Below, in pieces: positions 1 through 54,655 of a stretch of 64,000 bases of DNA (its first letter is position 1; every line of letters starts with the position of its first letter). A program made the position numbers and the translations under genes. The stretch covers positions 1,116,001 to 1,180,000 of the forward strand of contig OZ024757.1 of the NCBI GenBank assembly GCA_964016885.1, in the 5' to 3' direction. Origin of the DNA: Eledone cirrhosa (Eukaryota). The notes under the pieces were generated by a model. It was not told the DNA's origin. It made no database searches and saw only the letters and a list, made by a program, of their open reading frames with translations.

Positions 1-3000
1 TCTACTCTCAGTCACACCATAGACTGGTGTTCTGTCTAGGGGGACTCTTGTACTCTCAGTCACACGACACCAGAGACTGGTGTCCTGTCTAGGGGGAGTC
101 TTGTACTCTCAGTCCCGCCACACCGTAAACTAGTGTCATGTTTAGAGGGAGTCTTGTACTCTTAGTCACACCATAGACTAGTGTCCTGTCCAGAGGGCGT
201 CTCATACTCTCAGTCACACCATAGACTGGTGCCCTGTATAGAGGGAGTCTTGAACTCTAGGTCACACCATCGACTGGTGTCCTGTCTAGGGGGACTCGTG
301 TACTCTCAGTCACACCACACCATAGGCTGGTGTCCTGTCTAGGGGGAGTGTTGTACTCTCAGTCACACCATAGACTGGTGTCCTGTCTAGGGGGAGTCTC
401 GTATTCTCAGTCACACAATAGACTGGTGTCCTGTCTAGCGGGAAGTATTGTACTCTCAGTCACACCACACCATAGACTTGTAGTCCTGTCTAGGGGGAGT
501 CTTGTATTCTCAGTCACACCATAGACTGGTGTCCTGTCTAGGGGGCGTCTTGTACTCTCAGTCACACCATAGACTTGTGTCCTGTCTATGTGGGAGTCTT
601 GTACTCTGTTTCACCATAGACTGGTGTCCTGTCCAGGGGGAGTCTTGTACCTTCAGTCACGCCATAGACTAGTGTCCCGTCTAGGGGGAATCTTATGCTC
701 TCAGTCACACCATAGAATGGTGTCATGTTTAAGCGGAGTCTTGTACTCTCAGCCACACCACACCGTATACTGGTGTACTGTTCAGGGGATGTCTTGTACT
801 CTCAATCACACCATAGACTTATGTCCTGTCTAGGGGGAGTCTTGTACTCTCAGTCACACCATTGACTGGTGTCCTGTCCAGGGGAAGTCCTGTACTCTTA
901 GTCACACCACAAAATAGACTGGTGTCCTGTCTAGGGGGAGTCTTGTACTCTCAGTCACACCATAGACTGGTGTCCTGTCTAGGTGCGAGTCTTGTATTCT
1001 GTCACACTATAGACTGGTGTCCTGTCCAAGGGGAGTCTTGTAATCTCAGTCACACCATAGACTGGTGTCCTGTGTAGGGGGAGTCTTGTACTCTCAGTCA
1101 CACGACACCATAGACTGGTGTCCTGTCTAGGGGGACTCGTGTACTCTCAGTCACACCATAGACTGGTGTCCTGTCTAGGAGGAGTTTTGTACTCTCAGTC
1201 ACACCATAGACTGGTGTCCTGTCTAGGAGGAGTCTTGTACTCTCAGTCACACCATAGACTGGTGTCCTGTCTAGGAGGAGTCTTGTACTCTCAGTCACAC
1301 CATAGACTAGTGTCCTGTCTAGGAGGAGTCTTGTACTCTCAGTCACACCATAGACTGGTGTGCTGTCTAGGAGGAGCCTTGTATTCTCAGTCACACCATA
1401 GACTGGTGTCCTGTCTAGGGGGAGTCTTGTACTCTCAGTCACATCATAGACTGGTGTCCTGTCTAGGGGGAGTCTTGTAGACTCAGTCACACCATAGATG
1501 GTGTCCTGTCTAGGGGGAGTCTTGTACTCTCAGTCACACCATAGACTGCTGTCCTGTCTAGGGAGGAGTCTTGTACTCTCAGTCACACCATAGACTGGTG
1601 TCCTGTCTAGGGGGAGTCTTCTGCTCTCAGTCACACCATACACTGGTGTCCTGTCTAGGGGGAGTCTTGTAGTCTCAGTCACACCATAGACTGGTGTCCT
1701 GTCTAGGGGGAGTCTTGTACTCTCAGTCACAACATTGACTAGTGTCCTGTCTAGGGTGAGTGTTGTACTCTCAGTCACACCACACCATAAACTGGTCTCC
1801 TGTGCAGGGGGAGTCCTGTACTCTCAGCCACACCATAGACTGGTGTCCTGTCCAGGGGGAGTCCTGTACTCTCAGTCACAGCATGGAGAGGTGTCCTGTC
1901 TAGGGGGATTCTTGTATTCTCAGTCCACCACACCATAGACTGGTGTCCTATCCAGGGGGAGACTTGTACTCTCAGTCACACCATAGACTAGAGTCCTGTC
2001 CAGGGGAAGTTTTGTACTCTCAGTCACAACATAGACTGGCGTCCTGTCCAGGGGAAGTCTTGTACTCTCAGTCACACTACACCATAGACTGGTGCCCTGT
2101 CTAGGGGCAGTCCTATACTCTCAGTCACACCATTGACTGGTGTCCTGTTGAGGGGAAGTCTTGTACTCTCAGTCACACCACACCATAGACTGGTGTCCTG
2201 TCCAGTGTAAGTCTTGTACTCTCAGTCACACCACACCATAGACTGGTGTCCTGTCTAGGGTACTCTTGTACTCTCAGTCACACCACACCATAGACTGGTG
2301 TCCTGTCTAGGGGGACTCTTGTACTCTGTCACATCACACCGTTGACTAGTGTCCTGTTTAGGGGGAATCTTGTACTCTCAGTCACACCATAGACTGGTGT
2401 CCTGTCTATGGGATTCTTGTACTAACAGTCACACCAAACAATGGACTAGTGTCCTGTCTAGCGTGAGTCTTGTACTCTCAGTTACAACATAGACTGGTGT
2501 ACTGTCTAGGAGGGGTCTTGTACCCTCAGTCACACCATAGACTGGAGTCCAGGGGGCGTCTTGTACTCTAAGTCACAATACACCATAGACTGGTGTCCTG
2601 CCCAGGGGAAGTTTGTACTCTCAGTCACACCATAGACTGGAGTCCAGGGGGCGTCTTGTACTCTAAGTCACAATACACCATAGACTGGTGTTCTGTCCAG
2701 GGGGAGTTTTATACTCTGTCACACCATAGACTGGTGTCTTGTCCAGGGGAAGTTTTGTACTCTCAGTCACACCATAGACTGGTGTCCTGTCCACGTGAAG
2801 TTTGTACACTCAGTCACACATAGACTGGTGTCTTGTCCAGGGGAAGTCTTGTACTCTCAGTCACACCATAGACTGGTGTCCTGTCCACGGGAAGTTTGTA
2901 CTCTCAGTCACACCATAGACTGGTGTCCTGTTTAGGGGGATTCTTGTACTCTCAGTCACAACATAGACTGGTGTCCTGTCTAGGGGGATTCTTGTACTCT

Positions 3001-6000
3001 CAGTCACACCATAGACTGGTGTCCTCTCTAGGAGGAGTCTTGTATTCTCAGTCACATCATAGACTGGTGTCCTGTCTAGGGGGAGTCTTGTACTCTCAGT
3101 CACATCTTAGACTGGTGTCCTGTCTAGGGGGAGTCTTGTACTCTCAGTCACATCTTAGACTGGTGTCCTGTCCAGGGTGAGTCTTGTACTCTCAGGTACA
3201 CCACACCATAGACTGCTGTCCGTTCAATGGGGAGTCTTCTACTCTCAGTCACACCATAGACTGGTGTCCTGTCCAGGGGAAGTATTGTACTCTCAGTCAA
3301 ACCATAGACTGGTGTCCTGTCTAGGGGACTCTTGTACTCTCAGTCACACGACACCAGAGACTGGTGTCCTGTCTAGGGGGAGACTTGTACTCTCGGTCAC
3401 ACAATAGACGGGTGTCCTACTAGGGGAAGTCGTATACTCTCAGTCACACCATGCATTAGTGTCCTGTCTAGGGGGAGTCTTGTACTCTCAGTCCCGCCAC
3501 ACCGTAAACTAGTGTCATGTTTAGAGGGAGTCTTGTACTCTTAGTCACACCATAGACTGGTGTCCTGTCCAGAGGGCGTCTCGTACTATCAGTCACACCA
3601 TAGACTGGTGCCCTGTATAGAGGGAGTCTTGAACTCTAAGTCACACCATCGATTGGTGTCCTGTCTAGGGGGAGTCTTGTACTCTCAGTCACAACATAGA
3701 TTGGTGTCCTGTCTAGGGGGAGTCTTGTACTCTCAGTCACACCATAGACTGGTGTCCTGTACAGGGGAAGACTTGTACTCTCAGTCACACTATAGACTTA
3801 TGTCCTGTCTAGGGGGACTCTTGTACTCTGTCACACCATAGACTGGTGTCCTCTCTAAGGGGAGTCTTGTACTCTCAGTCACACGACACCATAGACTGGT
3901 GTCCTGTCTAGGGGTACTCGTGTACTCTCAGTCACACCATAGACTGGCGTTCTGTCTAGGAGGAGTCTTGTACTCTCAGTCACACCATAGACTAGTGTCC
4001 TGTCTAGGAGGAGTGTTGTACTCACAGTCACACCATAGACTGGTGTCCTGTCTAGGAGGAGTCTTGTACTCTCAGTCACACCATAGACTGGTGTCCTGTC
4101 TAGGAGGAGTCTTGTACTCTAAGTCACACCATAGACTGGTGTCCTGTCTAGGAGGAGTCTTGTACTCGTAGTCACACCATCAACTGGTGTCCTGTGTAGG
4201 GGGAGACTTGTACTCTCAATCACACCATATACTGGTGTTCTGTCTAGGAGGTGTCTTGTACTCTCAGTCACACCATAGACTGGTGTCCTGTCTAGGAGGA
4301 GTCTTGTACTCTCAGTCACACCATAGACTAGTGTCCTGTCTAGGGGGAGTCTTGTACTCTCAGTCACATCATAGACTGGTGTCCTGTCTAGGGGGAGTCT
4401 TGTAGACTCAGTCACACCATAGATTGGTGTCCTCTCTAGGGGGAGTCTTGTACTCTCAGTCACACCATAGACTGGTGTCCTGTCTAGGGATGAGTCTTGT
4501 ACTCTCAGTCACACCATAGACTGGTGTCCTGTCTAGGGTGAGTCTTCTGCTCTCAGTCACACCATAGACTGGTGTCCTGTCAAGGGGGAGTCTTGTACTC
4601 TCAGTCACAACATTGACTAGTGTCCTGTCTAGGGTGAGTGTTGTACTCTCAGTCACACCACACCATAAACTGGTCTCCTGTGCAGGGGGAGTCCTGTACT
4701 CTCAGCCACACCATAGACTGGTGTCCTGTCCAGGGGGAGTCCTGTACTCTCAGTCACAGCATGGAGAGGTGTCCTGTCTAGGGGGATTCTTGTATTCTCA
4801 GTCCACCACACCATAGACTGGTGTCCTGTCCAGGGGGAGACTTGTACTCTCAGTCACACCATAGACTAGAGTCCTGTCCAGGGGAAGTTTTGTACTCTCA
4901 GTCACAACATAGACTGGCGTCCTGTCCAGGGGAAGTCTTGCACTCTCAGTCACACTACACCATAGACTGGTGCCCTATCTAGGGGCAGTCCTGTACTCTC
5001 AGTCACACCATTGACTGGTGTCCTGTTGAGGGGAAGTCTTGTACTCTGAGTCACACCACACCATAGACTGGTGTCCTGTCCAGGGGAAGTCTTGTACTCT
5101 CAGTCACACCACACCATAGACTGGTGTCCTGTCTAGGATACTCTTGTACTCTCAGTCACACCACACCATAGACTGGTGTCCTGTCTAGGGGGACTCTTGT
5201 ACTCTGTCACACCACACCGTTGACTAGTGTCCTGTTTAGGGGGAATCTTGTACTCTCAGTCACACCATAGACTGGTGTCCTGTCTATGGGAGTCTTGTAC
5301 TCTCAGTCACACCAAACAATGGACTAGTGTCCTGTCTAGCGTGAGTCTTGTACTCTCAGTTACAACATAGACTGGTGTCCTGTCTAGGAGGAGTCTTGTA
5401 CCCTCAGTCACACCATAGACTGGAGTCCAGGGGGCGTCTTGTACTCTAAGTCCCAATACACCATAGACTGGTGTTCTGTCCAGGGGGCGTCTTATACTCT
5501 CAGTCACACCATAGACTGGTGTCCTGCCGAGGGGAAGTTTGTACTCTCAGTGACACCATAGACAGGAGTCCAGGGGGCGTCTTGTACTCTAAGTCACAAT
5601 ACACCATAGACTGGTGTCCTGCCCAGGGGAAGTTTGTACTCTCAGTCACACCATAGACTGGAGTCCAGGGGGCGTCTTGTACTCTAAGTCACAATACACC
5701 ATAGACTGGTGTTCTGTCCAGGGGGAGTTTTATACTCTCAGTCACAGCATAGACTGGTGTCTTGTCCAGGGGAAGTTTTGTACTCTCAGTCACACCATAG
5801 ACTGGTGTCCTGTCCACGGGAAGTTTGTACTCTCAGTCACACCATAGACTGGTGTCTTGTCCAGTGGAAGTCTTGTACTCTCAGTCACACCATAGACTGG
5901 TGTCCTGTCCACGGGAAGTTTGTACTCTCAGTCACACCATAGACTGGTGTCCTGTCTAGGGGGATTCTTGTACTCTCAGTCACAACATAGACTGGTGTCC

Positions 6001-9000
6001 TGTCTAGGGGGAGTCTTATACTCTCAGTCACACCACACCATAGACTGGTGTTCTGTCCAGGGTGAGTCTTGTAATCTCAGGTACACCACACTATAGACTG
6101 CTGTCCGTTCAATGGGGAGTCTTCTACTCTCAGTCGCACCATAGACTGGTGTCCTGTCACGGGGGAGTTGTGTACTCTCAGTCACACGATAGACTGGTGT
6201 CCTGTCTAGGGGGACTCTTGTACTCTCAGTCACACGACACCAGAGACTGGTGTCCTGTCTAGTTGGAGCCTTGTACTCTCGGTCACACAATAGACGGGTA
6301 ACCTACTAGGGGAAGTCGTATACTCTCAGTCACACCATGCATTAGTGTCCTGTCTAGGGGTAGTCTTGTACTCTCAGTCCCGCCACACCGTAAAATAGTG
6401 TCATGTTTAGAGGGAGTCTTGTACTCTTAGTCACACCATAGACTGGTGTCCTGTCCAGAGGGCGTCTCGTACTCTCAGTCACACCATAGACTGGTGCCCT
6501 GTATAGAGGGAGTCTTGAACTCTAGGTCACACCATCGACTGGTGTGTCCTGTCTAGGGGGAGTCTTGTACTCTCAGTCACAACATAGACTGGTGTCTTGT
6601 CTAGGTGCAGTCTTGTACTCACAGTCACACGACACCATAGACTGGTGTCCTGTCTAGGGGGACTCGTGTACTCTCAGTCACACCACACCATAGACTGGTG
6701 TCCTGTCTAGGGGGAGTCTTGTACTCTCAGTCACACCATAGACTGGTGTTCTGTCTAGGGGGAGTCTCGTATTCTCAGTCATACCATAGACTGGTGTCCT
6801 GTCTAGGGGGAAGTATTGTACTCTCAGTCACACCACACCATAGACTGGTGTCCTGTCTAGGGGGAGTCTTGTATTCTCAGTCACACCATAGACTGGTGTC
6901 CTGTCTAGGGGGCGTCTTGTACTCTCAGTCACACCATGGACTTGTGTCCTGTCTATGTGGGAGTCATGTACTCTATTTCACCATAGACTGGTGTCCTGTC
7001 CAGGGGGGGGTCTTGTACTCTCAGTCACGCCATAGACTAGTGTCCCGTCTAGGGGGAATCTTGTGCTCTCAGTCACACCATAGAATGGTGTGATGTCTAA
7101 GCGGAGTCTTGTACTCTCAGCCACACCACACCGTATACTGGTGTACTGTTCAGGGTATGTCTTGTACTCTCAGTCACACCATAGACTGGTGTCCTGTCTA
7201 GGGGGAGTCTTGTCCTCTCAGTCACACCATTGACTGGTGTCCTGTCCAGGGGAAGTCTTGTACTCTTAGTCACACCACAAAATAGACTGGTGTCCTGTCT
7301 AGGGGGAGTCTTGTACTCTCAATCACACCATTGACTGGTGTCCTGTCCAGGGGAAGTCTTGTACTCTTAGTCACACAACAAAATATACTGGTGTCCTGTC
7401 TAGGTGGAGTTTTGTACTCTCAATCACACCATAGACTTATGTCCTGTCTAGGGGGAGTCTTGTCCTCTCAGTCACACCATACACTGGTGTCCTCTCTAGG
7501 GGGGGGGGTCTTGTACTCTCAGTCATATCATAGACTGGTGTGCTCTCTATGGGGAGTATTGTACTCTCAGTCACACCATAGACTGGTGTCCTGTCTAGGG
7601 GGAGTATTGTACTCTCAGTCACACCACACCTTAGACTGGTGTGCTGTCTAGGGGGAGTCTTGTACTCTCAGTCACTCCATAGACTGGTGTCCTGTCTAGG
7701 GTGAGACTTGTACTCTCAGTCACACCACACCATTGACTGGTGTCCTGTCTAGGGGGCATCTTGTACTCTCAGTCACACCATAGACTGGTGTCCTATCCAG
7801 GGAGAGTCTTCTACTCTCAGTCACACCACATCATAGACTTGTGTCCTGTCTAGGGGAAGTCTTGTACTCTCAGTCACACCATAGACTAGTGTCCTGTCTA
7901 GGGGGAGTCTTATACTCTCAGTCACGTGACACCGTAAACTAGTGTCCTCTTTAGGGGGAGTCTTGTACACTCAGTCACACCATAGACTAGTGTCCTGTCC
8001 AGGGGAAGACTTGTACTCTCAGTTACACCACACCATAGATTGGTGTCCTGTCTAGGGGGAGTTTTGTACTCTCTGTCACACCATTGACTAAAGTCCTGTC
8101 TAAGGGGAGTCTTGTACGCTCAGTAACACCACACCATGGACTGCTGTCCTGTCAGGGGGATTCTTGTACTCTGTCACACCATAGACTGGTGTCGTGTCCA
8201 GGGGGAGTATTGTACTCTCAGTCACAGCATAGATTAGTGTCCTGTCTAGGGGAGTGTTGTACTCTTAGTCACAGCATAGACTAGTGTCCTGTCTAAGGCA
8301 AGTCTTGTACTCTCAGTCACACCACACCATAGACTAGTGTCCTGTTTAGGGGGAGTCTTGTACTCTCAGTCACAGCACACCATAGACTGGTGTCCTGTCC
8401 AAGGGTAGCCTTGTACTCTCAGTCACATCATAGACTGGTGCCCTGTCTAGGGGTAGTCTTGTACTCTCAGTCACACCATAGACTGGTGTCCTGTCTAGGG
8501 GAGTATTGTACTCTCAGTCACACCATAGACTAGTGTCCTGTCTATGGGGACTCATGTACTCTCACTCACACCACACCATGGACTGGTGTCCTGTTTACAG
8601 GGAGTATTGTACTCTCAGTCACACCATAGAATAGTGTCCTGTCTATGGGGACTCATGTACTCTCAGTCACACCGCACCATGGACTGGTGTCCTGTCTAGG
8701 GGGAGTCTTGTATTCTCCGTCACACCACACCATAGACTGGTTTCCTGTCTAGGGGGAGTCTTGTACTCTCAGTCACACCATAGACTGGTGTCCTGTCTAG
8801 GGGGTGTCTTGTATTCTCCGTCACACCACACCATAGACTGGTTTCCTGTCTAGGGGGAGTCTTGTACTCTCAGTCACACCATAGACTAGTGTCCTGTCTA
8901 TGGGGACTCATGTACACTCAGTCACACCACACCATGGACTGGTGTCCTGTCTAGGGGGAGTCTTGTACTCTCAGTCACACAATAGACTAGTGTCCTGTCT

Positions 9001-9395
9001 AAGAGGAGTCTTGTACTCTCAGTCACACAATAGACTAGTGTCCTGTCTAGGAGGAGTTTTGTACTCTCAGTCACACCATAGACTGGTGTCCTGTCTAAGA
9101 GGAGTCTTGTACTCTCAGTCACACAATAGACTAGTGTCCTGTCTAGGGGGAGTCTTGTACTCTCAGTCACACCATCGACTGGTGTCCTGTCTAGGGGAAG
9201 TCTTGTACTCTCAGTCACCCCATAGACTGGTGTTGTGACCAGGGGGCGTCTTGTACTCTCAGTCACACCATCGACTGGTGTCCTGTCTAGGGGAAGTCTT
9301 GTACTCTCAGTCACCCCATAGACTGGTGTTGTGTCCAGGGGGCGTCTTGTACTCTCTGTCACACGTTTGACTGGAGTCCTGTCTACTGGTGTCCC
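1..9395. repeat. 48-bp satellite array (consensus TCTTGTACTCTCAGTCACACCATAGACTGGTGTCCTGTCTAGGGGGAG; 53-bp variants with extra CACAC), left block, runs off window start
   Basis: Direct tandem repetition; the 16-aa periodicity of spurious ORFs (SCLGGVLYSQSHHRLV) confirms the 48-bp unit. Confidence 0.98.
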
Positions 9396-13006: not shown

Positions 13007-13071
13007 TATTTCATTATACATATTTCAAGGACACCAAGTTAAATTATGGTGTGCTTTCATCAGATAAAATA
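13007..13071 (-). ncRNA. Type I hammerhead ribozyme, family B (unit about 12875-13150)
   Basis: tattttat-CTGATGA-aagCacacca..tggtgtCctt-GAAA-tatgta-TA-atgaaata; 8-bp stem I, near-palindromic stem III. Confidence 0.85.
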
Positions 13072-14216: not shown

Positions 14217-14744
14217 AAAGTACATAGTATAATTAAAGTACATAATATATAAAATAAAATAAAAATGAACTATAGTTTTAAAAGGAATTACGATTTGGAA
14301 ATATATTCTTACAATTATAAGCAATATAATTTAAAAAAATATTTTAAAATATTTTAAGATATAATTTTTAAATAAGAATATGTCTAAAAAAATTCAGTAT
14401 AAAAATTATATATATAATTTCAATTATATATTATTTTAGTCGAAAGATGTGTGAATGTTTGAATATCAAAAAGAGAGGAAAAACGTAATGTGCTTTTCGA
14501 AGAACTATCGTAAAGAGGATAAATTTTCAGAATGTCAATTAAAGATTATCAATCTACGTCTAAAAAAATATATTTAGAGGGGTGTCATTAGAAAAATAAT
14601 GTAATAATTTAAAATATTAAATATATATATTAAAAAAATATTAAAAATATTAAAAATATTAAAAAATTTACATTTAAATTTTTAAAGAAAATAGGATCAT
14701 TTTGAAGGTGTATAGGAATACTATAAATTAAAAATAGTTCTGAA

Positions 14745-15035
14745 CGTGGAAGTTTGGCGATGTTTGCAAGAAGAAAATAATTCTGTTCTAAGAGTTTTGA
14801 CAGTTAATTATATAAAAAATTTCTTCGATACACAAGTTACAGAATCTTGATAAAGCCGTATTTCGGTACGCAGGTGCTTTCGAAATCGTTCTCCAAGATA
14901 TGAATAATCTATGTTGTTGTCTTTTAAGTTCCAAATTAGATGTGAAAGTGAAGTAGAAGATTTTTTATCGGATCTCCTAAATGTGTGTTTATGGTTATTC
15001 CAGCGTTCTTTGAATTTTGTTGAAGTGTATATATG
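14745..15035 (-). pseudogene. Penelope-like element GIY-YIG endonuclease C-terminal fragment (frameshifted)
   Basis: TKFKERWNNHKHTFR..SLSHLIWNLKDNN, then CNLCIEE and SSCKHR in other frames; colinear with the EN at 49700-50362. Confidence 0.75.
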
Positions 15036-15044
15036 TATGTGTTT

Positions 15045-15365
15045 ACTTCGTTTTTGAATTTGCTTTGTAAGATTTCTTAACGTGTGTTGAAACATATTGT
15101 TGTTCTTTGGGAGGGTCATGCTGGCAATAAAAACACACGCACGTGTTGTTTTTTACTTCAATTTATTATAAATTGGTGTAGAACAGAACAAAGGAGAAAC
15201 ACAAAATAGAAGCCCAGTCACTGAGGAGGTCACAGAATGTGTAACGAAAGAGCTTTGACAATACATAAACAACCCTCCGGTTGTCGAACCTTATAATGAA
15301 TTGAAGTGAAAATCAACATGTGTGTGTTTTTATTGGCAGCAGACCCTCCCAAAGTATAACAATAG
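15045..15365 (+). mobile_element. Family A small PLE-derived unit with inverted arms and HHR at 15217-15259
   Basis: gtca-CTGAGGA-g-gtcaca(gaatg)tgtaac-GAAA-gagc-TT-tgac; 15101-15170 is an inverted copy of 15291-15360; homologous to 46975-47540. Confidence 0.8.
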
Positions 15366-22137: not shown

Positions 22138-24054
22138 GCAAAGTGTAAATGAAGTAAGAGAGAAATTAGGCGTAAGAGGCATCAGATGCAGTTTACTAGA
22201 GAGGAGATTGCGTTGATATGGTCATTTGATGCATATGGAGTATGAAGGCTGTATAAAAAGGTTCAAGGTGATCAAAATTGATGGAAACTACGGAGTAGGT
22301 AGACCCAGGTAGACCTGGGATGAGGTGATAAAGGCTGACCTTGTGCAACTGTACCTCCCAAAGACACAGGATCGAGATCTTTGGTGTACACAACGAACTC
22401 AAACATATACCTAGTAGGCACCTCTTAACCACTATACCATCACCCACACCACCCTTACACTGTGAACAAAATATATCCAGCCCACAACAAGCACCCAGTG
22501 TCACAACAAGTACCCAGCCCACACTGCAAAGTGGTTGTATAGGTGTCACAACAAGCACCCAGCCCACATTGAAAAGTGGTTGTGTAGGTGTCACAACAAG
22601 CACCCAGCCCACACTGCAAAGTGGTTGTGTAGGTGTCACAACAAGCACCCGGCCCACACTGCAAAGTGGTTGTATAGGTGTCACAACAAGCACCCAGCCC
22701 ACATTGAAAAGTGGTTGTGTAGGTGTCACAACAAGCACCCAGCCCACACTGCAAAGTGGTTGTGTAGGTGTCACAACAAGCACCTAGCCCACACTGCAAA
22801 GTGGTTGTGTAGGTGTCACAACAAGGACCCAGCCCACACTGCAAAGTGGTTGTGTAGGTGTCACAACAAGCACCCAGCCCACACTGCAAAGTGGTTGTGT
22901 AGGTGTCACAACAAGGACCCAGCTCACACTGCAAAGTGGTTGTGTAGGTGTCACAACAAGGACCCAGCCCACACTGCAAAGTGGTTGTGTAGGTGTCACA
23001 ACAAGGACCCAGCCCACACTGCAAAGTGGTTGTGTAGGTGTCACAACAAGGACCCAGCCCACACTGCAAAGTGGTTGTATAGGTGTCACAACAAGGACCC
23101 AGCCCACACTGCAAAGTGGTTGTGTAGGTGTCACAACAAGCACCCAGCCCACACTGCAAAGTGGTTGTGTAGGTGTCACAACAAGGACCCAACCCACACT
23201 GCAAAGTGGTTGTGTAGGTGTCACAACAAGCACCCAGCCCACACTGCAAAGTGGTTGTGTAGGTGTCACAACAAGGACCCAGCCCACACTGCAAAGTGGT
23301 TGTGTAGGTGTCACAACAAGGACCCAGCCCACACTGCAAAGTGGTTGTGTAGGTGTCACAACAAGCACCCAGCCCACACTGCAAAGTGGTTGTATAGGTG
23401 TCACAACAAGCACCCAGCCCACACTGCAAAGTGGTTGTGTAGGTGTCACAACAAGCACCCAGCCCACACTGCAAAGTGGTTATGTAGGTGTCACAACAAG
23501 CACCCAGCCCACACTGCAAAGTGGTTGTGTAGGTGTCACAACAAGGACCCAGCCCACACTGCAAAGTGGTTGTGTAGGTGTCACAACAAGGACCCAGCCC
23601 ACACTGCAAAGTGGTTGTGTAGGTGTCACAACAAGGACCCAGCCCACACTGCAAAGTGGTTGTGTAGGTGTCACAACAAGGACCCAGCCCACACTGCAAA
23701 GTGGTTGTGTAGGTGTCACAACAAGGACCCAGCCCACACTGCAAAGTGGTTGTGTAGGTGTCACAACAAGGACCCAGCCCACACTGCAAAGTGGTTGTGT
23801 AGGTGTCACAACAAGCACCCAGCCCACACTGCAAAGTGGTTGTGTAGGTGTCACAACAAGCACCCAGCCCACATTGTAAAGTGGTTGGCATTACGAAGGG
23901 CATCCAGCCATAGCAACCAAGACATCCAGCCATAGCAACCAAGCCAGAAACAGTCCTATATGAGTTAGACACGGTCACCTGACCCGACTTGTCCCAAATG
24001 GGACGACCCATCAAACACAGGCTAGAATGGAAAATGGATGTTAAACGATGATAA

Positions 24055-24058
<4 letters not shown>
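22138..24058 (+). mobile_element. RTE LINE 3' end with expanded 45-bp minisatellite in the 3'UTR
   Basis: EVREKLGVRGIRC..RRLR*YGHLMHM..GRPR*TWDEVIKADL, homologous to 37547-37873; tail GGATGTTAAACGATGATAATG. Confidence 0.85.
22490..23885. repeat. 45-bp minisatellite, ~31 copies (GTCACAACAAG(C/G)ACCCAGCCCACACTGCAAAGTGGTTGTGTAGGT)
   Basis: 15-aa periodicity of the spurious ORFs; highly homogeneous units. Confidence 0.97.
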
Positions 24059-24097
<39 letters not shown>

Positions 24098-24100
<3 letters not shown>

Positions 24101-24727
24101 AGAGAATTAGTATATTTACCAACATATGCGTAAAGATGTGCACTAATGCTAGCAAATACATAAGTTATGTCATAGTACCTAGGTGGTTCAATGCAGGAGG
24201 ATGCAGAACAATTATATGAAAGACGTAAAATAAGAAAATTTTAAAAATTAAAAATTAACTTACTTACTAAAATTTTCACTCCAACTAATTAGTTTCTGTA
24301 ATGGGATAAAGATAGTTACGCAATGTAACCATCGAGAATTCATTACGTCATCAGGGAGTCTATTCTCAGCTAAGTCTCCAGGCAATGCGCGGATACTAGG
24401 GACTCATATAAAAATAATAATTCGGTGGATGGAACAGCTAGCGGGGACTGAATTCCATAGCACTGAAAAAGTTCACTGTCTCTGGTCAAATGGCAGATTC
24501 TAAAGAATCAATCACGTGACACTGAGGCTAGTCAGAAGGAGTGGGGTGGTATAATGACAAAAGCCTACTACCACTACAATGATTTGGCAAGTTTGCTCAA
24601 CAAATAAATAATTTGGAGATAAATATAGAGAATTAGTATATTTACCAACATATGCGTACAGATGTACACTAATGCTAGCAAATACATAAGTTATGTCATA
24701 GTACCTAGGTGGTTCAATGCAGGAGGA

Positions 24728-24728
<1 letters not shown>
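24098..24728 (-). mobile_element. HHR-bearing 526-nt unit present as a 1.2-mer (retrozyme/mini-PLE-like) between (TA)n tracts
   Basis: 105-bp direct repeat 24098-24202 / 24624-24728 (2 mismatches) enclosing a hammerhead. Confidence 0.7.
24278..24359 (-). ncRNA. Type I hammerhead ribozyme, canonical core
   Basis: actcc-CTGATGA-c gtaatg(long loop)cattac a-GAAA-ctaattag-TT-ggagt; stem III ACTAATTAGT is a perfect palindrome. Confidence 0.88.
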
Positions 24729-24799
<71 letters not shown>

Positions 24800-24802
24800 G
24801 TA

Positions 24803-24902
<100 letters not shown>

Positions 24903-24903
24903 A

Positions 24904-24936
<33 letters not shown>

Positions 24937-24938
24937 AG

Positions 24939-24976
<38 letters not shown>

Positions 24977-24977
24977 A

Positions 24978-25010
<33 letters not shown>

Positions 25011-25012
25011 AG

Positions 25013-25048
<36 letters not shown>

Positions 25049-25049
25049 A

Positions 25050-25151
<102 letters not shown>

Positions 25152-25316
25152 TTATATATATATCTATATATATATATATATATAAGTATATATATATATA
25201 TAAGTATATATAGAGAAAATTGAGGTTGGTAATGGCACATGGAATATATAAGAGACAGAATACTTTTTTGTGAAAAAACATAATTTTATAAGGTAAGGAA
25301 ATAATAAAGGGTATAA

Positions 25317-25364
25317 AAAATGACCGGTTTCGATGGGTCTGCAAAAGCCATCTTTTCAAATGTT
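25317..25364 (-). ncRNA. Type I hammerhead with U3-A8 core in the PLE 3' region
   Basis: aacat-TTGAAAA-gatgg..ccatc-GAAA-ccgg-TC-atttt; palindromic ACCGGT stem III. Confidence 0.7.
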
Positions 25365-25720
25365 GATTAATATTAAGAAAAATTAATAATACGAAGAGTT
25401 AAAATTTGAGACTTGAAAATTCAAGTATAAAATTCATTGTGGGATTTCATAGCAGTTTTCATCTAGGTAGCAACAACAGGTTGACTGCTGTGTCCCTTTC
25501 TGGTAGTGAATGAGAAGTTATTTGGGGTGTGGGTTATTTTATAAAGGTCAGATTTAGCAATCACCAACTGGCCAGCTGCTGGTCAGTGAGGGGGTGGAAG
25601 CAATATACATACACATATCTTCCTGTGATGGGTAGGAGAGTGGGGCGTGATAGAAAGGGATTTAGTGCACTTACACCTATATATACACACATACCTTCAT
25701 CCACACATACATACATATAC

Positions 25721-26568: not shown

Positions 26569-28851
26569 CTATTGGGGTGATAACCCGTTTAGTTTTGGTT
26601 TAAATTTGTTAAGGAATAGATTTTCTTTGTTTATTCTTTGTTGCTGTGTGAACGAATCTGAGCACTTGTAGAAGGGGAAGATTTTAAAGTTGGGTAGTGT
26701 CATTCCTGCGCAGTTCGCAATATGGCTGCTCAAGGGGATTTTTCTTGTGTTAGCGTCCCGGATTTGTTGGCGGTGGATGGTCATTCTTTTGTGTAATGAG
26801 GTGCCCGTCTGTCCTATGTAGTTGTGTTTGCACCCACCGCAAGTTATTGCGTAAATCAAGTTCTCCGAGTTGCAGGTGAAATTGTTTTTTACTGTAAATG
26901 TTTGGCCGTCTTTGAATGTAAATGTTTGTCCTTCAGTGAGGTAGAGGCACGTTCCACAGTTTGTTCTACCACATTTGGTAACTGTAGGGTTGAGGATTGG
27001 TTTGGGTATATTTGGTCCAGTGAGAATGCGTTTAAGTGATTTGGGTTGTCTTTTACTTTTAAGGATCTTGTGTGTTTCAAGAATAGACTTCATTTTTACA
27101 TCTTTAAGTAGGATGGGGAGGTTTTTGTGTAGGTGATCAAACATTTCGGTATTTCTGGGGTTGAAAGTGGATACATATGGCAGGGTGTTGAGTGTGGTTT
27201 TCTGTTTTGGATTGTTAAGTTGATGGGGATTTAGGTGTTTTGCCCTGTCTATTCCATTGTTGATTATTTCAAGTGGAAAGGCTCTTAAGATAAGGGTGTC
27301 TTTTAGTTCCTTTAGTCTTTGCTCCCGTTTAGGTGGATCTGATACTATGGTACATATACGTTTGGCCAAATTGTAAGGAATGTTAAGTTTTGTATGTTTT
27401 GGGTGACTTGATGTGAAAAAGAGGTATTGCTTGGAATCTGTGGGTTTATAGAATATATCTGTATCTAATTTCCCGTCTATTACAGAGATGAGAATATCCA
27501 AGAAGGCTAATTCCTTAGGATTGGATTCCATTGTGAATTGTATGTTATTATCTATGTTGTTTATCATGTTTTTAAACGTAGTAAGTGAGTTCATGTCTTC
27601 TTGCCATAGGATAAAGCAGTCGTCTAGATATCTTTTCCAATTGGCTTTGAGGTGTGTGTGGAAAGAGTCTCCAAATAAGAGAAGAGACTGACTGTATATT
27701 TGTTGTTCATGGAATCCCATGACTAGGTTGGCATATGTGGGTGCTACTTTCGAGCCCATTGCCGTACCTGATACTTGTCTGTATGTTGAACCATTGAATG
27801 TGAAGTAGTTATTTTGTAGGATAAAGCGGAGTCCGTCAGTGATAAAATCTGTGTTGATGCGTGTCGGTATTTCTGATGGGTGTGTGTTAAGCCAGTATTG
27901 GACTGCTGTTATTCCATAGTTGTGAGGTATGTTTGTGTAGAGGTTTATTACGTCAAAGGAGACAAGAATTGTATTTGCACTTACTGTTTTAGGGAGGTGT
28001 TTCAGCATGTCAAGGTCATCTCGTATGTAGCTCTGTATATGTTGTAGAAAGGGTTTCAGTAGGATGTCCAGAAAGTTGCTAAGTCTGTGGGTTTCACATG
28101 TAGGGCCTGCTATAATTGGCCTGAGTTTTAGGTCTTCTGGTGGTGTTAGTTCAATGTAATTGTTGGTTGAGGTGTCACATGCATCGTTTATGGGTTTACA
28201 TTTGTGAAGTTTCGGTAAGCCGTAAAAAGAGCTTGTATTGCATTTGAAGTGGCTTATATAGTTAAACTCTTTTGTGGTTAAGCTGTTGCGGTATTTATTC
28301 AGTAAGGTTAAAAGGTTCCCCATTGTTTTGGTGTGTTTGTAGTTTTCTGTTTTTTCATAGTATGTGTTGTTTTCTAAAATGTTAAGTGCGAGGGTCCTAT
28401 AGTAGTCCGTATTCATAATGACAACAGTACTGCCTTTATCGGCTTCTTTGATAGTTATCTCAGGGTTGTTTCTAAGTGTGAATAATTCTTCCCATTCGTG
28501 TGTAGATAGGTTTGATTTCGTGTGTTTATTTGTAATTTTTTCATAGGGAAAGTTGGTGATGTGTTCGCAGTACGTGTCCAGTGCTTTATTTCTTCCCTTT
28601 TGTGGGCAGAAATTGCTTTTATTTCTAACCAGTGATTCGTCTTCAGTGTTGGTGTCGTTGTGGAAGAATTCCGTTAGTCGCAGCTTTCGGCAGTATTCCA
28701 TGATGTCATCCTTCATTTCGGGGAAGTTTGGTTTACGTGGTGTAGGTGTAAATTTCAGGCCCTTACTTAAAATGTTGATTTGTGTGTTGGTTAGAGGTGT
28801 CTTTGAGAGGTTGATTATTTTTGGTTTCTCCTGAGGGGGGGGGGGGGCCAT
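26569..28851 (-). CDS. PLE reverse transcriptase / GIY-YIG endonuclease polyprotein (760 aa, uninterrupted)
   Basis: [80 protein letters not shown], CxxxxCxxC linker, [16 protein letters not shown]...H, E..FL......LN. Confidence 0.95.
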
Positions 28852-29422
28852 TGAGTATCCTGGTATTTCAGGCTTTTCCCTAAAAAAGGAATGTAGTTTT
28901 GTGTGTGATTATATTTTGTTGGTCTGTTGCGTGTGGGTCTGTAGCTTGTTGTTTCATGAGGGTGAATGTGATGGTGGGGGTGGTATGTGTTGTGGTTGTT
29001 GATGAGCAAGGGTTCTGTTGTTGGTTCATGTGGTCTGGGTGCGTTATTTCTGTGGTACAGAGTGTTGAGGCTGGGGGGTTGTCTTTTGTTGGATTGAGGG
29101 TGATGTCTGGTGTGGTTGTGGGTAAGTTCTGTTGTGATTTCAAGTGGTCTGGGTGGATTTCTTCTGAGGAATGTGGTGTGTGTGTTGTGAGTTGGATCTA
29201 TGTTATTTCGTCGTTGGTTTATGTAGGGGGCATTTCTACGGAAACCTGTGTTGTGGTGGTTGGGTGTGTTTCTTTTGGTGTAGTTGGCCGTATTTGGTTT
29301 GTGTTGGTGGGTATATATATATATATATAAGTATATATATATATATATATATATAAGTATATATATATATATATAAGTATATATATATATATATATATAT
29401 AAGTATATATATATATATATAA

Positions 29423-29513
<91 letters not shown>

Positions 29514-29564
29514 TATATATATATATAAGTATATATATATATATATATATAAGTATATATATAT

Positions 29565-29649
<85 letters not shown>

Positions 29650-29654
29650 TATAT

Positions 29655-31110
<1,456 letters not shown>

Positions 31111-35360: not shown

Positions 35361-35923
<563 letters not shown>

Positions 35924-37247: not shown

Positions 37248-39942
37248 TCATCATCATCACCGTTTTACGTCCATTCTTCCACACTAGCATAGGTTAGACG
37301 GGTTGTCCTGTTGTGGGCAGTGTCTGGTCGGCTGACCTTGCCTTGCTCATACGGGAACTGATTCTGGCATGATTTCTACAGCTGGATGCCCTTCCTAACA
37401 CCAACCTCATTTACAGTGTGGGCTGGGTGCTTTTCTCCATGGCGCCTACACATCCACTTTACAGTGTGGGCTGGGTGCTTTTTTGCCATGGCACCTCCAC
37501 GACCACTTTGCAGTGGGAGGGTGTGGGGGCATATTGTCTATATGCTTCAGCTTCGGCTTGTGGGGGGTCGGGTCTTCTGTATTACTGCGTGACACCAGAG
37601 GTCATGGTCCTGTGTCATCGCCTTTGAGAGGTGTAATTGGGTAAGGTCGGCTTTTATCACCTCATCCCAGGTCTTCTTGGGTCTCCCCACTCCGCGGTTT
37701 CTATCGACTTCTAGTGCTCTGCACCTTTTTATGCAGCTGTCATCCTTCATGTGCACCACATGTCCATACCAACATAACCTCCCCTCCTGCACACAGCATT
37801 TGATTCCTCTTATGCTCAGTCTCTCTCTCAATTCGTTTATGCTTTGCCGTTCGCGTATATTACTATTACACATCCATCAGAGCATGCAGGCTTCGTTTCT
37901 TTCTAATCTACGCAAGTCTTCCTCAGACGGCGTCTAGGTCTCACTACCATGTAACATTGCTGTTCATATACACGCATCATACAGTCTGCTTTTCATTTTG
38001 AGGGAAAAGCCTTTTGCAACTAGCAGTGGCAGTAGCTCCCTGAATTTCTTCCATCCCGTTCTTATCCTAGTTATTGTACTTTCCGAACACCCACTTCCGC
38101 TGCTAATTCAGTCACCTAGGTAGCAGAAGCTGTCTACTGTTTCTACAGAGCCCTCCCAGAGATTGGTGGTACTTGTTTCCTGTGGCTGTTTGCTGCTTGC
38201 TGTCCCAGCGCAGCTGCTACATGTGAAGCCTACATTCTTAGTTAAGCTTCCTGAGATCCCATTACATCTCTTGTGTACCCATCGTTTGCATTTGAGGCAG
38301 AGAATGGAGTTCCTATCTACACCTTTCCTACATACTGAGCAAGGCCATTTCCCTGAGGGGATCTGAGTTCTGTTTTCACGTCTACTTACAAGGACCTTAG
38401 TCTTTGTCAGGTTAACTTTGAGGCCCTTTCTTTCTAGTCCCTGCTTCCAAGTTTGGAATTTCTTCTCTAATTCTACCATAGATTCAGCTATAAGTGCGAG
38501 GTCATCTGCATACAGGAGTTCCAATGGGCATCCGGTCTTAAACTCCTCCGTTATTGCCTGCAGAACTATGATGAACAGGAGAGGGCTAAGAATAGAGCCC
38601 TGGTGGACACCGACCTGTATGCTAAATTCCTCGCTATAGTCATTGCTAATCCTAACTTTGCTGACTGCTCCCCTATACATGGCTTGTACAGCTTTCACAA
38701 GCCATTCATCTACTTCTAGTTTTCTAAGAGCCCACCAGATTATAGCACGGGGAACTCTGTCAAAGGCTTTCTCGAGATCGACGAATGCCGGGTAGAGCGG
38801 GTTATTTTAGCTAGGTACTTTTCCTGTAACTGCGTCACAAGGTAGAGGGCATCAGTAGTGCCTCTTCTTGGCACAAACCCAAATTGCATCTCATCTAGTT
38901 TCACCTGGTCCCTAATCAACTGTGCTATAACTCTTTCTGTTACTTTTATGACCTGGTCCATCAGCTTCATACCTCTATAGTTTCCTCTATCTAGTGCATC
39001 ATCTTTACCTTTGTAGCAGTTGACAATGATGCTGCTGCACCAATCGTTTGGTATGACACCCTTTAGTATTACCTGGTTAACAATACGTGTGGTTATGGTG
39101 TGACCTACCGACCCAGATGCCTGCAGCATCTCGACAGCTATACCTAAGCAACAGGTTGCCTTCCCCTTCTTCATATCTTTGATTGCCTTACTACACTGCT
39201 GCTGACTTGTACTGCTAGCCCCTCTATAGGGTTCACTTTGGGTAGGGTATCTTTTTCCCACGCATTCTGCTCATTTAGTAATCTTCATACTGGCTCTTCC
39301 ACGCATCTTTCTTCTCAGCTCTTGTGAGTGCAAGCTCACGTTTATCATTCTGGATACACTTCTCTCCAATGACATCACAATTCTCTCTGGAACACCTCCT
39401 GTTTCTGGTCCTCACGTTGCAAAAGATGCTTGAATTTTCTATCCTCTGCTTCCCTCCTAGCTAAGTATACTTGTCGCCTAGCTTCCCTCGTGGTCTCTAT
39501 GTAATGTACCCTGCTTACCCCATTCCTCCATTCTTTCCATGCCTGTCTCTTGGTCTTAACTGCCTCATCTACCTTATTGTTCCACCACCAAGTCACTCTC
39601 CTCCTGCCTGTGGTCTTACTCCAACCACAGATCTCATCCGTCGCCTTTAGTAAGTTATTTTTTAGGAACTCCCAGTGTTCTTCTACATTGAATGTCTCTA
39701 TTTGTTCTTCTTTACTGTCATAGGCATTGAGTAAAATATCTTTAAATCTGTTACTGGCTGAGGGGGTCTTTCAGCTTCCAGATCTTTCTTCAGGTTGGCT
39801 TCTGTTTCCAGGTTCATCTAGTTCTGACTGTGAGGTCGCTGACAACTAAGCTATGTTGGGAGGTACATTCCTCACTAGGGAAGGCTTTTGTGTTTATGAC
39901 CGTCCATCAGTCACGTCCTCTGATCAGGATAAAATCTATCTA
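37245..39942 (-). pseudogene. RTE LINE copy 1 (5' truncated in APE; RT, Cys-rich insert, C-terminus, 3'UTR), frameshifted
   Basis: IDFILIR..TKAFPSEEC..HSLVVSDL; WWWN; YKGK.DALDRGNYRG; QFGFVP; GVHQGSILSPLLF; LLYADDL; CxxC..CxxC..WVHKRC; FCYLGD; (GAT)n tail. Confidence 0.92.
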
Positions 39943-42065
39943 AGTATAGTGGCTTATTCTTCTCTAAGAACCTCTCTTGTAATTGTCTCACCAAGAAGAG
40001 GGCATCTGTTGTACTTTTCCCAGGCACAAAACCAAACTGGATGTCATCTAGTTTGACCCTTTCTCTAATTAGTTGTGCTAATATTCTTTCTGCCACTTTC
40101 ATAACCTGATCCATCAGTTTTAAACTCCTATAATTGCTCCTCTCCAGAGCATCCCCTTTACATTTGTAGCAATTTATGAGAATACTGCTGCACAAATCTT
40201 TGGGTATGACACCACCATATATAGCCTGATTGATGATGCGTGCAACCAGTTTAGTGCTTACGTCTCCTGATGCCTTCAGCATCTCAGCAACTATTCCCGA
40301 CGGTCCAGCAGCCTTACCATTTTTCATTTCCTTAATCGCCTCTTGGACCCTATATTCGTCAATCTCAATAGCTGGTCCCTCTGTCGGATCTATTGAGGGT
40401 AATTTCTCTCTCTCCGATTCGTTCTCCACATTTATCAGTCTCTCATAATAACATTTCCAGGCCTCCTTTTTCTGATCATTCGTGACACTAAGTACACCGG
40501 CATTATTCCGGACACATTTATTTCCAGCAACATCCTGATTTGCACTGACACACTGCCTTGCAATGCGGAACACCACACGTCTCTGATCTTCCCGTCACAG
40601 AACATTGGCAAACCTCCTACTCTCAGCCTCCTTGCGTGCTAAGTACACCTGACGTCTAGCTTCTCTCTTAGCGGCTGTATATCCTTCTCTACTCCCACCC
40701 TTTTTCCAAGCATTCCATGCTAGTCTTTTGTCTCTAATGGCCCTATCTACCGTGCTGTTCCACCACCAGGTCACTCTCTGTCTGGTTGGAGCTCCGCTCC
40801 AGCCACAAGTTTCATCAGTAGCCTGCAGTAAGTTGTCACGTAAGAAATTCCAGTTATTATCTATGTCATACGACTCTTAATCGTCTTCTTTTTCATCATA
40901 CACATCTTGAAGGGCTTTCCTAAATTTGTATTTTAGTGAAAGGTCTTTTAGCTTCCAGACCTTTCTTCTCCACACCTTCCTGTATGTCTCATTCCATCTC
41001 TTGCTTACTGAGATGTCACAAACGACTAACCTATGCCGTGGGGTACATTCTTCCCCAGGGTATGCCTTGGTATTTGACACCATCTGCCTGTCCCACTGCC
41101 TAACTAGCAAGAAGTCAATCTGGCTTATGTGCTCGCCTGATTTGTAGGTTATTAGATGGTTGGCAGGTTTCTGGAAGTTAGTGTTGCAAATGGTTAGCGC
41201 ATTTGCATCACAAGATTCAAGAAGCCTCACTCCTTCTTCATTTCTTGAGCCGTAACAATGCCCACCATGTACTCGAGTGTATCCATTCTGCAGCTGTCCA
41301 ACATGTCCATTGAAGTCCCCTGCTAGCATAACGATGTCTCCGTCCTCTGTCATTGAGGCTGTGAAAAGTTGCTCGTAAAAGCAGTCTTTCTCTTCTTTAC
41401 TTAGGCCTGCTTGGGGAGCATAAGCAGAGATGATTGTCAGCAGTCTCTTGCCTACAACTAATCTAAGCTTAATTATTCTATTATTAACTTGAACTACCTC
41501 TATTGTCTCATTGATCCATCTCTCAGCTAGGAAAATCCCCCTAACCCATCATTCTTACCTACCCAGAAAAGCTTATAGCTAAGACATTTGCCTACGACTC
41601 GTCTTGCAGAGGCACCTCTCCATCTCACCTCTTGCACGCAGCACACATCCACATGCCTTCTCTCCAGCATCTCCGCTATTTCAGCAGATCTACCTCTGAG
41701 AGTGCCAACATTAAGTGTTGCAACTCTGAGATGCGACGTCTTTATATTTTTGTTGTTCCTTTTCCTGTTGTGCGATTGCTTGAAGACGGTCGTGGGGTTC
41801 TCGCACATGGTCGCACCAGCCACCCCATTACCGTGTGCAGCCCTAACATGGTTAGTGTTATTGCTGTTGACGCAGTTGTTGCAATTCTCATTTGTTGTGT
41901 TCATAGTGTTTGGCAGTAGTATATATACTGGTTGGATGCCCTTCCTAACACAGGAGCCACTTTACAGCATGGACTGGGAGCTTTTATTTGTGCCACCAGG
42001 ACTAGAGAGGATGTCTTACTGGACTTATGGGCCCTCTCTACCCCTCCATTTTACAGCATGGTCAT
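39943..42065 (-). pseudogene. RTE LINE copy 2 (5'UTR, APE endonuclease, N-terminal RT; 3' truncated)
   Basis: RVATLNVGTL..DVCCVQEVRW; GDFNGHVG; IDFLL; HRLVVCD; KNGKAAGPSGI; NYRSLKL; QFGFVPGKSTTDA. Confidence 0.92.
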
Positions 42066-49406: not shown

Positions 49407-49470
49407 ATTCATTTATCAGTGGTTTCTTGAAGACGGATATTTATATCTGTCTTCAGTCGTCAGAAAGAAT
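49407..49470 (-). ncRNA. Type I hammerhead ribozyme
   Basis: attcttt-CTGACGA-c tgaagacagatat(aa)atatccgtcttca a-GAAA-ccactga-TA-aatgaat. Confidence 0.8.
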
Positions 49471-49699
49471 AAAATGGAATGTTTATTAAATATGGATTTG
49501 AAACAAAATTTAGGAAATATGAAAGTGAGGCTGAAATCAAATAACGGGCAAAAAATTGAGGGGGAAAAAAAAAAAAAAAAATCCAGAACATAAACATACA
49601 CACACTCAAACCCACGCTTATACGTGATAGTAGGTAGACGTATACATTCTCATATAAGTGCATGTGCGTCTACATGGAAATACGAACACACACATATAT

Positions 49700-50362
49700 A
49701 ATGCCGAGGTTGCAACACCAATTGGGAAAATCTTCTTTAGGCTCCTCGAAAAACACTTCCAACCACAACACCGCTACCACAACATAATCAACAAAAACAT
49801 TATCAAACTGTCCTACAGCACCACACCCAACTTCGCACAAAATATCGCCTCCTCTAACAACAAGAAACTCAACTCCTACGGAAGAAACAACCTAGACATT
49901 AGTGGAGAGCCGACCAGGAGGTGTAACTGCCCTGATAGATCTACGTGCCCCCTCAACAACAGATGCCGAGAACGTAACGTGATTTACCAATACAACGTGA
50001 GGACAGAAAACTCTAACAAAGCCTATATAGGATTAACCGCCTGTGACTTTAAGACTCGGCTCTACCAACACCCACATACATTCAGAAACCCGGTCCGACG
50101 ACATGCCACTACACTTTCGGGCCACATCTGGGACCTCCAAGAAAACAACATCACAGACCATCTTACTTGGAGCTTACTTTCCAGGGCTAACTCCTACTCG
50201 GGAGGACGCCGTCCGTGCAACTTATGCTCGGAGGAAACAATACAAATGCTGTTTACGAAAGACCAACTCCTAAACAAAAAAGCCAAACTTGTAACCGCAT
50301 GTAAACACCGATTGCGTAGGACTTACCTCACCCTCAAACCCCCTAATGACCCGGGTGGGTAG
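49700..50362 (+). pseudogene. 5'-truncated PLE: linker + GIY-YIG endonuclease (open frame)
   Basis: IGKIFFRLLEKHF..IKLSYS; CNC....CPL...C..NVIYQ..AYIGLT..FKTR...H...F; LS.HIW.L; CNLC.EE; LLN..CKHR. Confidence 0.85.
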
Positions 50363-50685
50363 ACAATGGCTGTTACATCCTTCTTTTCCCCACTTGCTGA
50401 ACAAGATAGGGGAAACCCCAGCATACATAGGTAGATGTAATTCTTTTCTTTTTTACCTTTATCCCTTCCTGTCACTTCTTTCCACTCCCTCTCCTATTCC
50501 TTTCCCTTTTTCCTCTTTCGCTTACCCTGAGGCAGCCCATCGGGATTTTGTAGCTTCAATACCCCCACCCCTGTGAATTCTATAGTTCATTGGCTGAAAA
50601 CGCAATACCAGCTAAATAGCAACTGTTTTAGACTCTAGTTTTTTTAATTATATAGATATGTATATATGTATATATATATGTATGT

Positions 50686-53600: not shown

Positions 53601-54655
53601 CTGAAGAAGACTGTCGTCATATACCAACCTGCTCCGGATAAAGTTTTCAATGAACCCTCCATACACGTATACGGTCAAAAGCTGAAGGCTGCTGACACAT
53701 TTGTGTATTTGGGGAGTACTCTGAGTGTGACCTGCTCTCTGGATGCAGAAGTTGGTCTACGTGTTAGTAAGGCAAGTGAGTCATTTGGAAGGCTCAATGA
53801 CCCTCTTTGGTGCAAGCGAGGAATCACAATGAGGACCAAGGTGAGAGTGTATGCTGCATGTGCACTGTCAGCTTTTCTGTATGCATATGAGGCATGAGTT
53901 GCCTACAAACGGCATATCCACAGACTGGAACGGTTTCAGCAGCAATGTCTCAGAAAGATGCTCGGTATCAAGTGGCAGATGCATGTGAGTGATGTTGAGG
54001 TCCTTGAGAGAAGTGAGTGTCGGAGCATTGAGAGTATCATCCACCAACAGCGTTTGCGATGGACCGGACACCTCTGCAGAATGGGGATGATCGAATCCCA
54101 AAACAACTCTTGTATGGCGAGCTTTGTGAGGGTAAGAGACCACCTCACAAGCCAAAGCTCCGATTCAAGGATTGTGTAAAGGACTCATTGAAAAAAACTG
54201 GTTTGATGATGGCTGACTGGGAGATAGAAGCTCTTGAAAGAGTAACTTGGCGTGGAATGGTGAATGATGGGGTCCATAAGTTTGAGGACAGACGCATAGA
54301 GCACGAGAAGATCAAACGTGATGAGCGTAAGCAATGCCCTGGTGTATCTCTCGAAAAGATCAGTGTCTCCATTGAATTGAAGTGCTCTGAGTGTGGAAAA
54401 ATTTGCTTGAACAAATCTGGTCTCAGGAGCCACAGTCGCAGACATGTTCAGAGAGAACCAGTGAACTATGATCTCCACGGTGTTGTGAGGGTTCACAGGC
54501 AACCTGATGCAGGACCTCAAACCAGGGAGATCCATAGTTGTCGTCAGTGTGTGAAGGAGTGCAAGTCTCTAGCAGGCTTAAAAAGCCATATCCGAGCGTC
54601 CCACATCTGAATCTGACAAGCGATTGCAATACTCTTGGCAGAGTTTGCAGCCATC
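50686..54655 (+). pseudogene. Near full-length RTE (BovB-like) LINE, frameshifted, with two C-terminal C2H2 zinc fingers
   Basis: IGCWNVRT; DIVALSETRL; SVYAPT; GDFNA; TWMHPGSK.WHLID; TDHRLV; KSPG.DG; NYRGISL; QCGFR; FVDLTKAFD; YADD; YLGS; RLRW.GH; CSECGK..H...H and CRQC...H....H. Confidence 0.93.

Follow-up and report, generated by a model that had tools for sequence, protein, structure and literature searches.

The question raised by this locus of Eledone cirrhosa is whether a short repeat carrying a hammerhead ribozyme motif records the passage of a reverse transcriptase (RT) around a circular RNA, as proposed in the first-pass annotation of the 64-kb stretch of DNA analyzed here (the window). 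The window is dense in microsatellites and retroelement debris, and the 631-base stretch in question, a non-coding unit of 526 bases present in 1.2 copies, is embedded in a TA microsatellite, with (TA)n blocks at 24057-24101 and 24729-25212. Read along the minus strand, (TA)n is followed by a 105-nt repeat, 421 nt with the ribozyme motif, a second 105-nt repeat and again (TA)n (Table 1). The 105-bp direct repeat, its 526-bp spacing and the (TA)n on both sides were all confirmed as first described: the two copies have sharp ends, an offset of exactly 526 and 103 of 105 positions identical, with mismatches at 24133 and 24140 only. Target-site duplications are unreadable within a (TA)n microsatellite. 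No second copy of the unit was found within the 64-kb window.

Table 1. Coordinates of the insertion, its parts and the neighboring features (positions in the window)
Feature	Position	Strand	Remarks
(TA)n flank, 3' end	24057-24097		Putative target
Whole insertion	24098-24728	-	105-nt truncated copy, then one 526-nt unit (partial tandem)
526-nt unit	24098-24623	-	Non-coding
3' terminal-repeat copy	24098-24202	-	Long hairpin ends 13 nt short of the 3' end; putative start region of reverse transcription
Type I hammerhead motif	24278-24359	-	5-bp helix I, C.A-closed 51-nt helix II arm, palindromic helix III, GUU
5' terminal-repeat copy	24624-24728	-	Putative 5'-truncated second unit, pseudo-LTR; terminal hairpin fully paired
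(TA)n flank, 5' end	24729-25212		Recurring AAGT interruptions
Separate hammerhead motif (context)	25320-25365	-	U3-A8 core variant, core 25359, 109 nt before (TA)n
Penelope RT + GIY-YIG frame (context)	26569-28908	-	Uninterrupted, 778 aa; C-x4-C-x2-C linker (Neptune/Nematis type)

The earlier claim that the insertion contains no ORF also held. Its longest stop-to-stop frames are 83 aa (plus strand) and 71 aa (minus strand), and no coding remnant was detected by tblastn with three Penelope peptides from the window (best E value of 0.16), by a profile built from 33 relatives (best E value of 0.15, against 0.004 for a control endonuclease fragment) or by blastx against 84 ORFs (best E value of 1.3). 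A protein search with the 71-aa frame returned no candidate among proteins of 39 to 125 aa. The unit lacks the RT plus GIY-YIG ORF of an autonomous Penelope-like element.

On the minus strand, the hammerhead core CUGAUGA begins at 24354 and GAAA at 24296, the GUU site places the predicted cut after 24283, and helix III is a perfect 10-nt palindrome. The 51-nt helix II arm is made up of 6 bp, a 7x7 internal loop and a 9-bp hairpin, and its closing position is taken by a C.A mismatch, with no direct closure by a G10.1-C11.1 pair. The GUU site, the palindromic helix III and the long helix II agree with the initial description of an intact hammerhead, but with C.A closing helix II the word "intact" goes further than the motif shows. 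Rfam models detected no hammerhead in the whole window at the gathering score (the single match was a tRNA) and none among the 18 matches obtained for 23900-24800 at an E value of ≤10. The 51-nt helix II is the unusual feature of the locus, a long-armed variant missed by current Rfam models.

With a helix III of only 3 bp, the active fold of the ribozyme monomer costs 2.5 kcal/mol more than the minimum, while the palindrome duplex reaches -9.0 kcal/mol, values that fit cleavage as a dimer. From this folding we would predict that two copies of the ribozyme pair through the helix III palindrome and cleave as a dimer, a mode argued for Penelope ribozymes in the available text of PMC4209133 and PMC6765202. 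Folding is specific to the ribozyme (minus) strand for both the ribozyme (z of -3.7 versus -1.0 on the plus strand) and the repeat hairpin (-2.8 versus +2.1 in the 3' copy and -3.5 versus +1.1 in the 5' copy). The two differences between the repeat copies fall in the tip of the hairpin at a distance of 7 nt, and each form keeps a stem. The whole unit gave z values of -5.7 with the folding tool, -3.2 with our own script and -3.9 as a circle. Thus, the monomer fold that the first-pass annotation had suggested as a check is stable as a circle (56% of bases paired) but unexceptional for a Penelope 3' end: values as low as -3.2 were also obtained with our script for 2 of 22 ordinary ones, so the structure does not mark the unit as a circle. 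By eye, a possible GT-AG intron can be drawn on the minus strand somewhere within 24283-24179, downstream of the ribozyme and ahead of the terminal hairpin, with donor-like motifs, a pyrimidine-rich run and an acceptor-like site. Introns are retained in Penelope elements.

Hammerhead motifs of the Penelope type are numerous in the window. A structural scan located 13 of them, compared to 0.1 per shuffled window (20 shuffles), which shows that the motif is not a product of chance. All 13 precede a (TA)n run, the 12 others by 24 to 315 nt, and the one in the unit is 184 to 186 nt from the (TA)n end. Helix II arms measure 18 to 32 nt in these 12, and a terminal direct repeat was found at none of them, their layout being simple or inverted. 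Four pairs are inverted (34206/34321, 36731/36828, 47220/47343 and 54798/54925), the usual inverted form of Penelope insertions. The motifs at 13063, 20328, 34206/34321, 36731/36828, 45142 and 54798/54925 belong to a family of Penelope-type hammerhead ends, 70 to 94% alike, with an AUA cut site and an 8-bp helix I, mostly in short inverted insertions in (TA)n; those at 15221 and 47220/47343 represent another family, also of inverted insertions. Judged by eye, a hammerhead-like core at 49420-49485 (minus strand) has a helix II closed by C.A, as in the unit, and its helices I and III look decayed.

The neighboring RT-endonuclease ORF lies 1.8 kb from the insertion on the same strand. Cysteine linkers of its kind are assigned to Neptune and Nematis in the available text of PMC8557442, and the ORF illustrates the type of enzyme that could act on the unit in trans. 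We considered and rejected the unit as the terminal repeat of this ORF. The two share no sequence, and the motif with its core at 25359 is probably the 3' end of the neighboring autonomous element, at about 1.2 kb from stop codon to probable ribozyme; the insertion is therefore separate from its neighbor, within the same TA-rich nest. The best relatives of the 778-aa ORF are 59% identical, and an N-terminal extension lies in another frame (26569-29311, minus strand).

Several other features of the window were recorded. A decayed U3-A8 hammerhead-like motif was seen by eye upstream of the large ORF (about 29810-29860, minus strand), and a fragment from the C terminus of another Neptune-type endonuclease lies at 30900-30959 (minus strand). 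Of the (TA)n arrays of the window, only the three blocks at 24729-25212, 29312-29657 and 30960-31108 carry AAGT-type interruptions, 20 in all and 19 of them in one orientation, and each of these blocks is directly 5' of a Neptune-type piece. Most simply, nested insertions have divided a single interrupted array into the three blocks, a less likely source being a reiterative, telomerase-like product of the 5' junction; the block at 35554 has its own, different interruption, amplified 15 times. GIY-YIG endonuclease fragments are found at 49658-50362 (plus strand) and 14733-15152 (minus strand), the first with the CxCx5C linker described for the Hydra clade. After this fragment, near 50525, a hammerhead-like motif can be made out by eye; it is imperfect and has a long insert in helix II. 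The window also contains broken elements of the LINE type, with domains for AP endonuclease and RT (38108-41548, minus strand; 51210-54610, plus strand), and large minisatellites (3-9385, 22498-23887 and 60501-61836, with periods of 48, 45 and 72 bp, respectively).

To place the ribozyme, we compared it with Penelope loci from other organisms. An alignment of 33 relatives of the neighboring ORF was used to fetch 87 loci, 26 of which have the motif in the 900 nt that follow the protein match. In the 11 closest of these (33 to 52% identity to the neighboring ORF), helix II is closed by a 1x1 U.U mismatch in six and by a direct pair in five, whereas the 15 more distant loci all have the single 5' bulge that the available text of PMC4209133 describes and none the 1x1 mismatch, although this division was drawn after seeing the rows and some of the loci are of the same family. 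With a preset cut at 36% identity, the near group comprised 4 mismatch and 5 paired loci and the far group 15 bulged and 2 mismatch ones. The unit shares the 1x1 form with its close relatives, so its closing mismatch is probably native and its ribozyme probably of the Neptune type, though the closure is C.A rather than the U.U of the relatives. The 26 loci have helix II arms of 8 to 23 nt and helix III palindromes of 4 to 6 nt (6 nt in the 11 closest), compared to 51 and 10 nt in the unit. In the unit, the 269 nt upstream of the core show no coding trace, although for 9 of the 11 close relatives this distance is enough to reach the end of the protein match, which would favor a short derivative.

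No autonomous partner sharing sequence with the unit was found in the window or among the 87 loci from other organisms. Ribozyme pattern scans of metagenome and viral contigs gave 0 matches, further searches for related loci gave no match, and nothing was learned from a plain alignment of seven ribozymes. Hammerhead-bearing Penelope elements were also seen in contigs filed under bacterial genome bins (L081-L087), which are probably host DNA. Part of the stretch is contained in 13 of the 16 sequencing runs listed, with word shares, not used here as evidence, of 0.59 to 0.65 in three runs of one sample, 0.29 in one run of the same organism, 0.32 in one of a second organism and 0.05 to 0.14 in eight; no RNA run is listed among those that contain it.

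The reading that we favor, with a probability of roughly 0.55, is that 24098-24728 is one insertion of a 526-nt non-autonomous derivative of a Neptune-type Penelope element. Read as a complete unit with a truncated copy in front of it, the locus implies a full-length element of 526 nt, hence a non-autonomous one. This arrangement is the normal, defining form of Penelope insertions, direct partial tandems accompanying full-length copies, in the available text of PMC8557442 and PMC8969392, which bears out the partial-tandem habit noted in the first-pass annotation; the kinship that it had claimed with retrozymes and Penelope-like elements is likewise supported. A Penelope RT-endonuclease acting in trans would nick the (TA)n array and prime reverse transcription at the target. 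The RT would start copying at the hairpin, placed 184 nt 3' of where the ribozyme would cut, a role suggested for the 3' repeat copy by analogy with PMC11167929. The RT would then cross the cut site, complete the unit, enter the next one and halt after 105 nt, on a template effectively longer than one unit. The DNA would be identical whether the template was a ligated circle or an uncut tandem transcript or the RT jumped between templates, so the 1.2-mer is no footprint of a circle. Of the proposal that the RT went more than once around a 526-nt circle or tandem transcript, the reverse transcription of more than one unit is supported and the circular footprint is not. With a single ribozyme at the locus, no monomer could be released from this copy, which is probably a dead end.

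Among these routes, the uncut tandem transcript and the template jump are somewhat more likely than the circle and, taken jointly, plausible at rather less than even odds. The circle, a sub-case of the derivative reading in which self-cleavage of tandem donors located elsewhere yields a 526-nt monomer, which is closed by ligation and copied 1.2 times round, seems unlikely to us. It is the model proposed for Penelope elements and retrozymes in the available text of PMC4209133 and PMC7229834, and both the stable fold of the circular monomer and a cDNA that passes the cut site without a scar agree with it. However, an uncut tandem accounts for the same DNA, no multimer was seen in the 64-kb window, and the two repeats would have been identical at birth, so both of their differences would have to be later mutations. 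Biochemistry points the same way: the one Penelope protein that has been purified, from anole, starts internally and uses uncut RNA, ribozyme mutants have no effect on its insertion in vitro, where cleavage is thus unneeded, and no reads end at the cut (PMC11167929), while only one of nine Xenopus dimers cleaved in vitro (bioRxiv 2026.07.22.740005). Also doubtful is a wider version, in which an undescribed family of circular-RNA retrozymes with a 526-nt circle and a new hammerhead variant is copied by a Neptune RT; the internal loop of its mismatch-closed 51-nt helix II could dock on the internal loop of helix I.

The strongest competitor of the derivative reading, though clearly the less likely of the two, is a one-off composite. 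In it, the 526 nt would come from the 3' end of an autonomous element of the Neptune type that has a long 3' UTR and was truncated on its 5' side; the RT would then have added 105 nt by jumping to the 3' end of a second template, or a second short copy would have landed at the junction. A truncated autonomous end could also be devoid of coding traces, given the approximately 1.2 kb between stop and ribozyme, that is, the long 3' UTR, of the neighboring element; still, the lack of any coding trace in the unit counts against the composite. Short truncated Penelope ends are common in the window (13 motifs, several in inverted pairs), but none of the 12 other sites has the terminal direct repeat, and the literature cited above ties direct partial tandems to full-length copies. 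The clustering of the repeat differences mildly suits two templates, with a chance of about 0.13 by rough arithmetic. The TATA at the internal junction is a possible target. In favor of the derivative reading, the junction as a whole (TATA, T-run, CC) resembles by eye, weakly and with n = 3, the intact read-through junctions of loci L002, L004 and L009. Much less probable is a longer tandem array that deletions have reduced to its present size, or a small LTR element whose LTRs are 105 bp long. Either would account for the terminal direct repeats, yet the ends are not TG...CA, no primer-binding site or purine tract lies beside the repeats on either strand, both ends meet (TA)n sharply, and the ribozyme is outside the repeats, unlike in plant LTR retrozymes.

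As a non-autonomous Penelope derivative, the unit is likely to represent a known kind of element and is a candidate retrozyme only. Li et al. 2026 (bioRxiv 10.64898/2026.07.22.740005) derive animal non-LTR retrozymes from Penelope pseudo-LTRs (pLTRs) and treat them as non-autonomous Penelope derivatives of 51 to 972 bp; the sizes in the available text of Cervera and de la Pena 2020 (PMC7229834) are 150 to 450 bp. The unit resembles them in being short and non-coding, in its type I hammerhead, in lacking LTR, PBS and PPT and in its more-than-unit layout; its 526 nt fall inside the first range and exceed the second. Li et al. call an element active only where two consecutive units bear a ribozyme, whereas this locus has one, and its type is that of Penelope terminal repeats rather than the canonical type described for coral retrozymes. 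With Neptune/Nematis-type elements and pseudo-LTRs, as they appear in the available text of PMC8557442 and PMC4209133, the unit shares the pseudo-LTR-forming partial tandem, the (TA)n insertion site with its microsatellite flanks, a hammerhead near the 3' end, a palindromic helix III, a short helix I and the 1x1 helix II closure found in 6 of 11 close relatives; it differs in the missing RT/endonuclease ORF and in both its helix II arm and its helix III palindrome, longer than those of the loci compared above. The non-autonomous Chlamys elements such as MRC1 are similarly Penelope derivatives with pLTRs and head-to-tail insertions, but they belong to green algae, mostly lack hammerheads and have a 3' end that matches an autonomous partner (PMC8557442, in the text available).

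The significance of the locus is modest: the window has many Penelope ends with a hammerhead, and short derivatives of the non-autonomous kind have already been described. In the literature covered, with most subscription papers outside its scope, we found no description of a Penelope ribozyme with a long helix II or of a retrozyme in cephalopods. Lunse et al. reportedly describe dimer-cleaving Penelope hammerhead variants, which may already include mismatch-closed or long helix II forms, and the putative family of the unit may already be catalogued in repeat databases. The long-armed ribozyme is a variant beyond current Rfam models. A unit this short would leave many more-than-unit copies, and such a family could be used to test from genome data the route to Penelope partial tandems, whether by circle, read-through or template jump. 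If a circular-RNA family does exist, its genomic copies would reveal whether Penelope RTs use circles.
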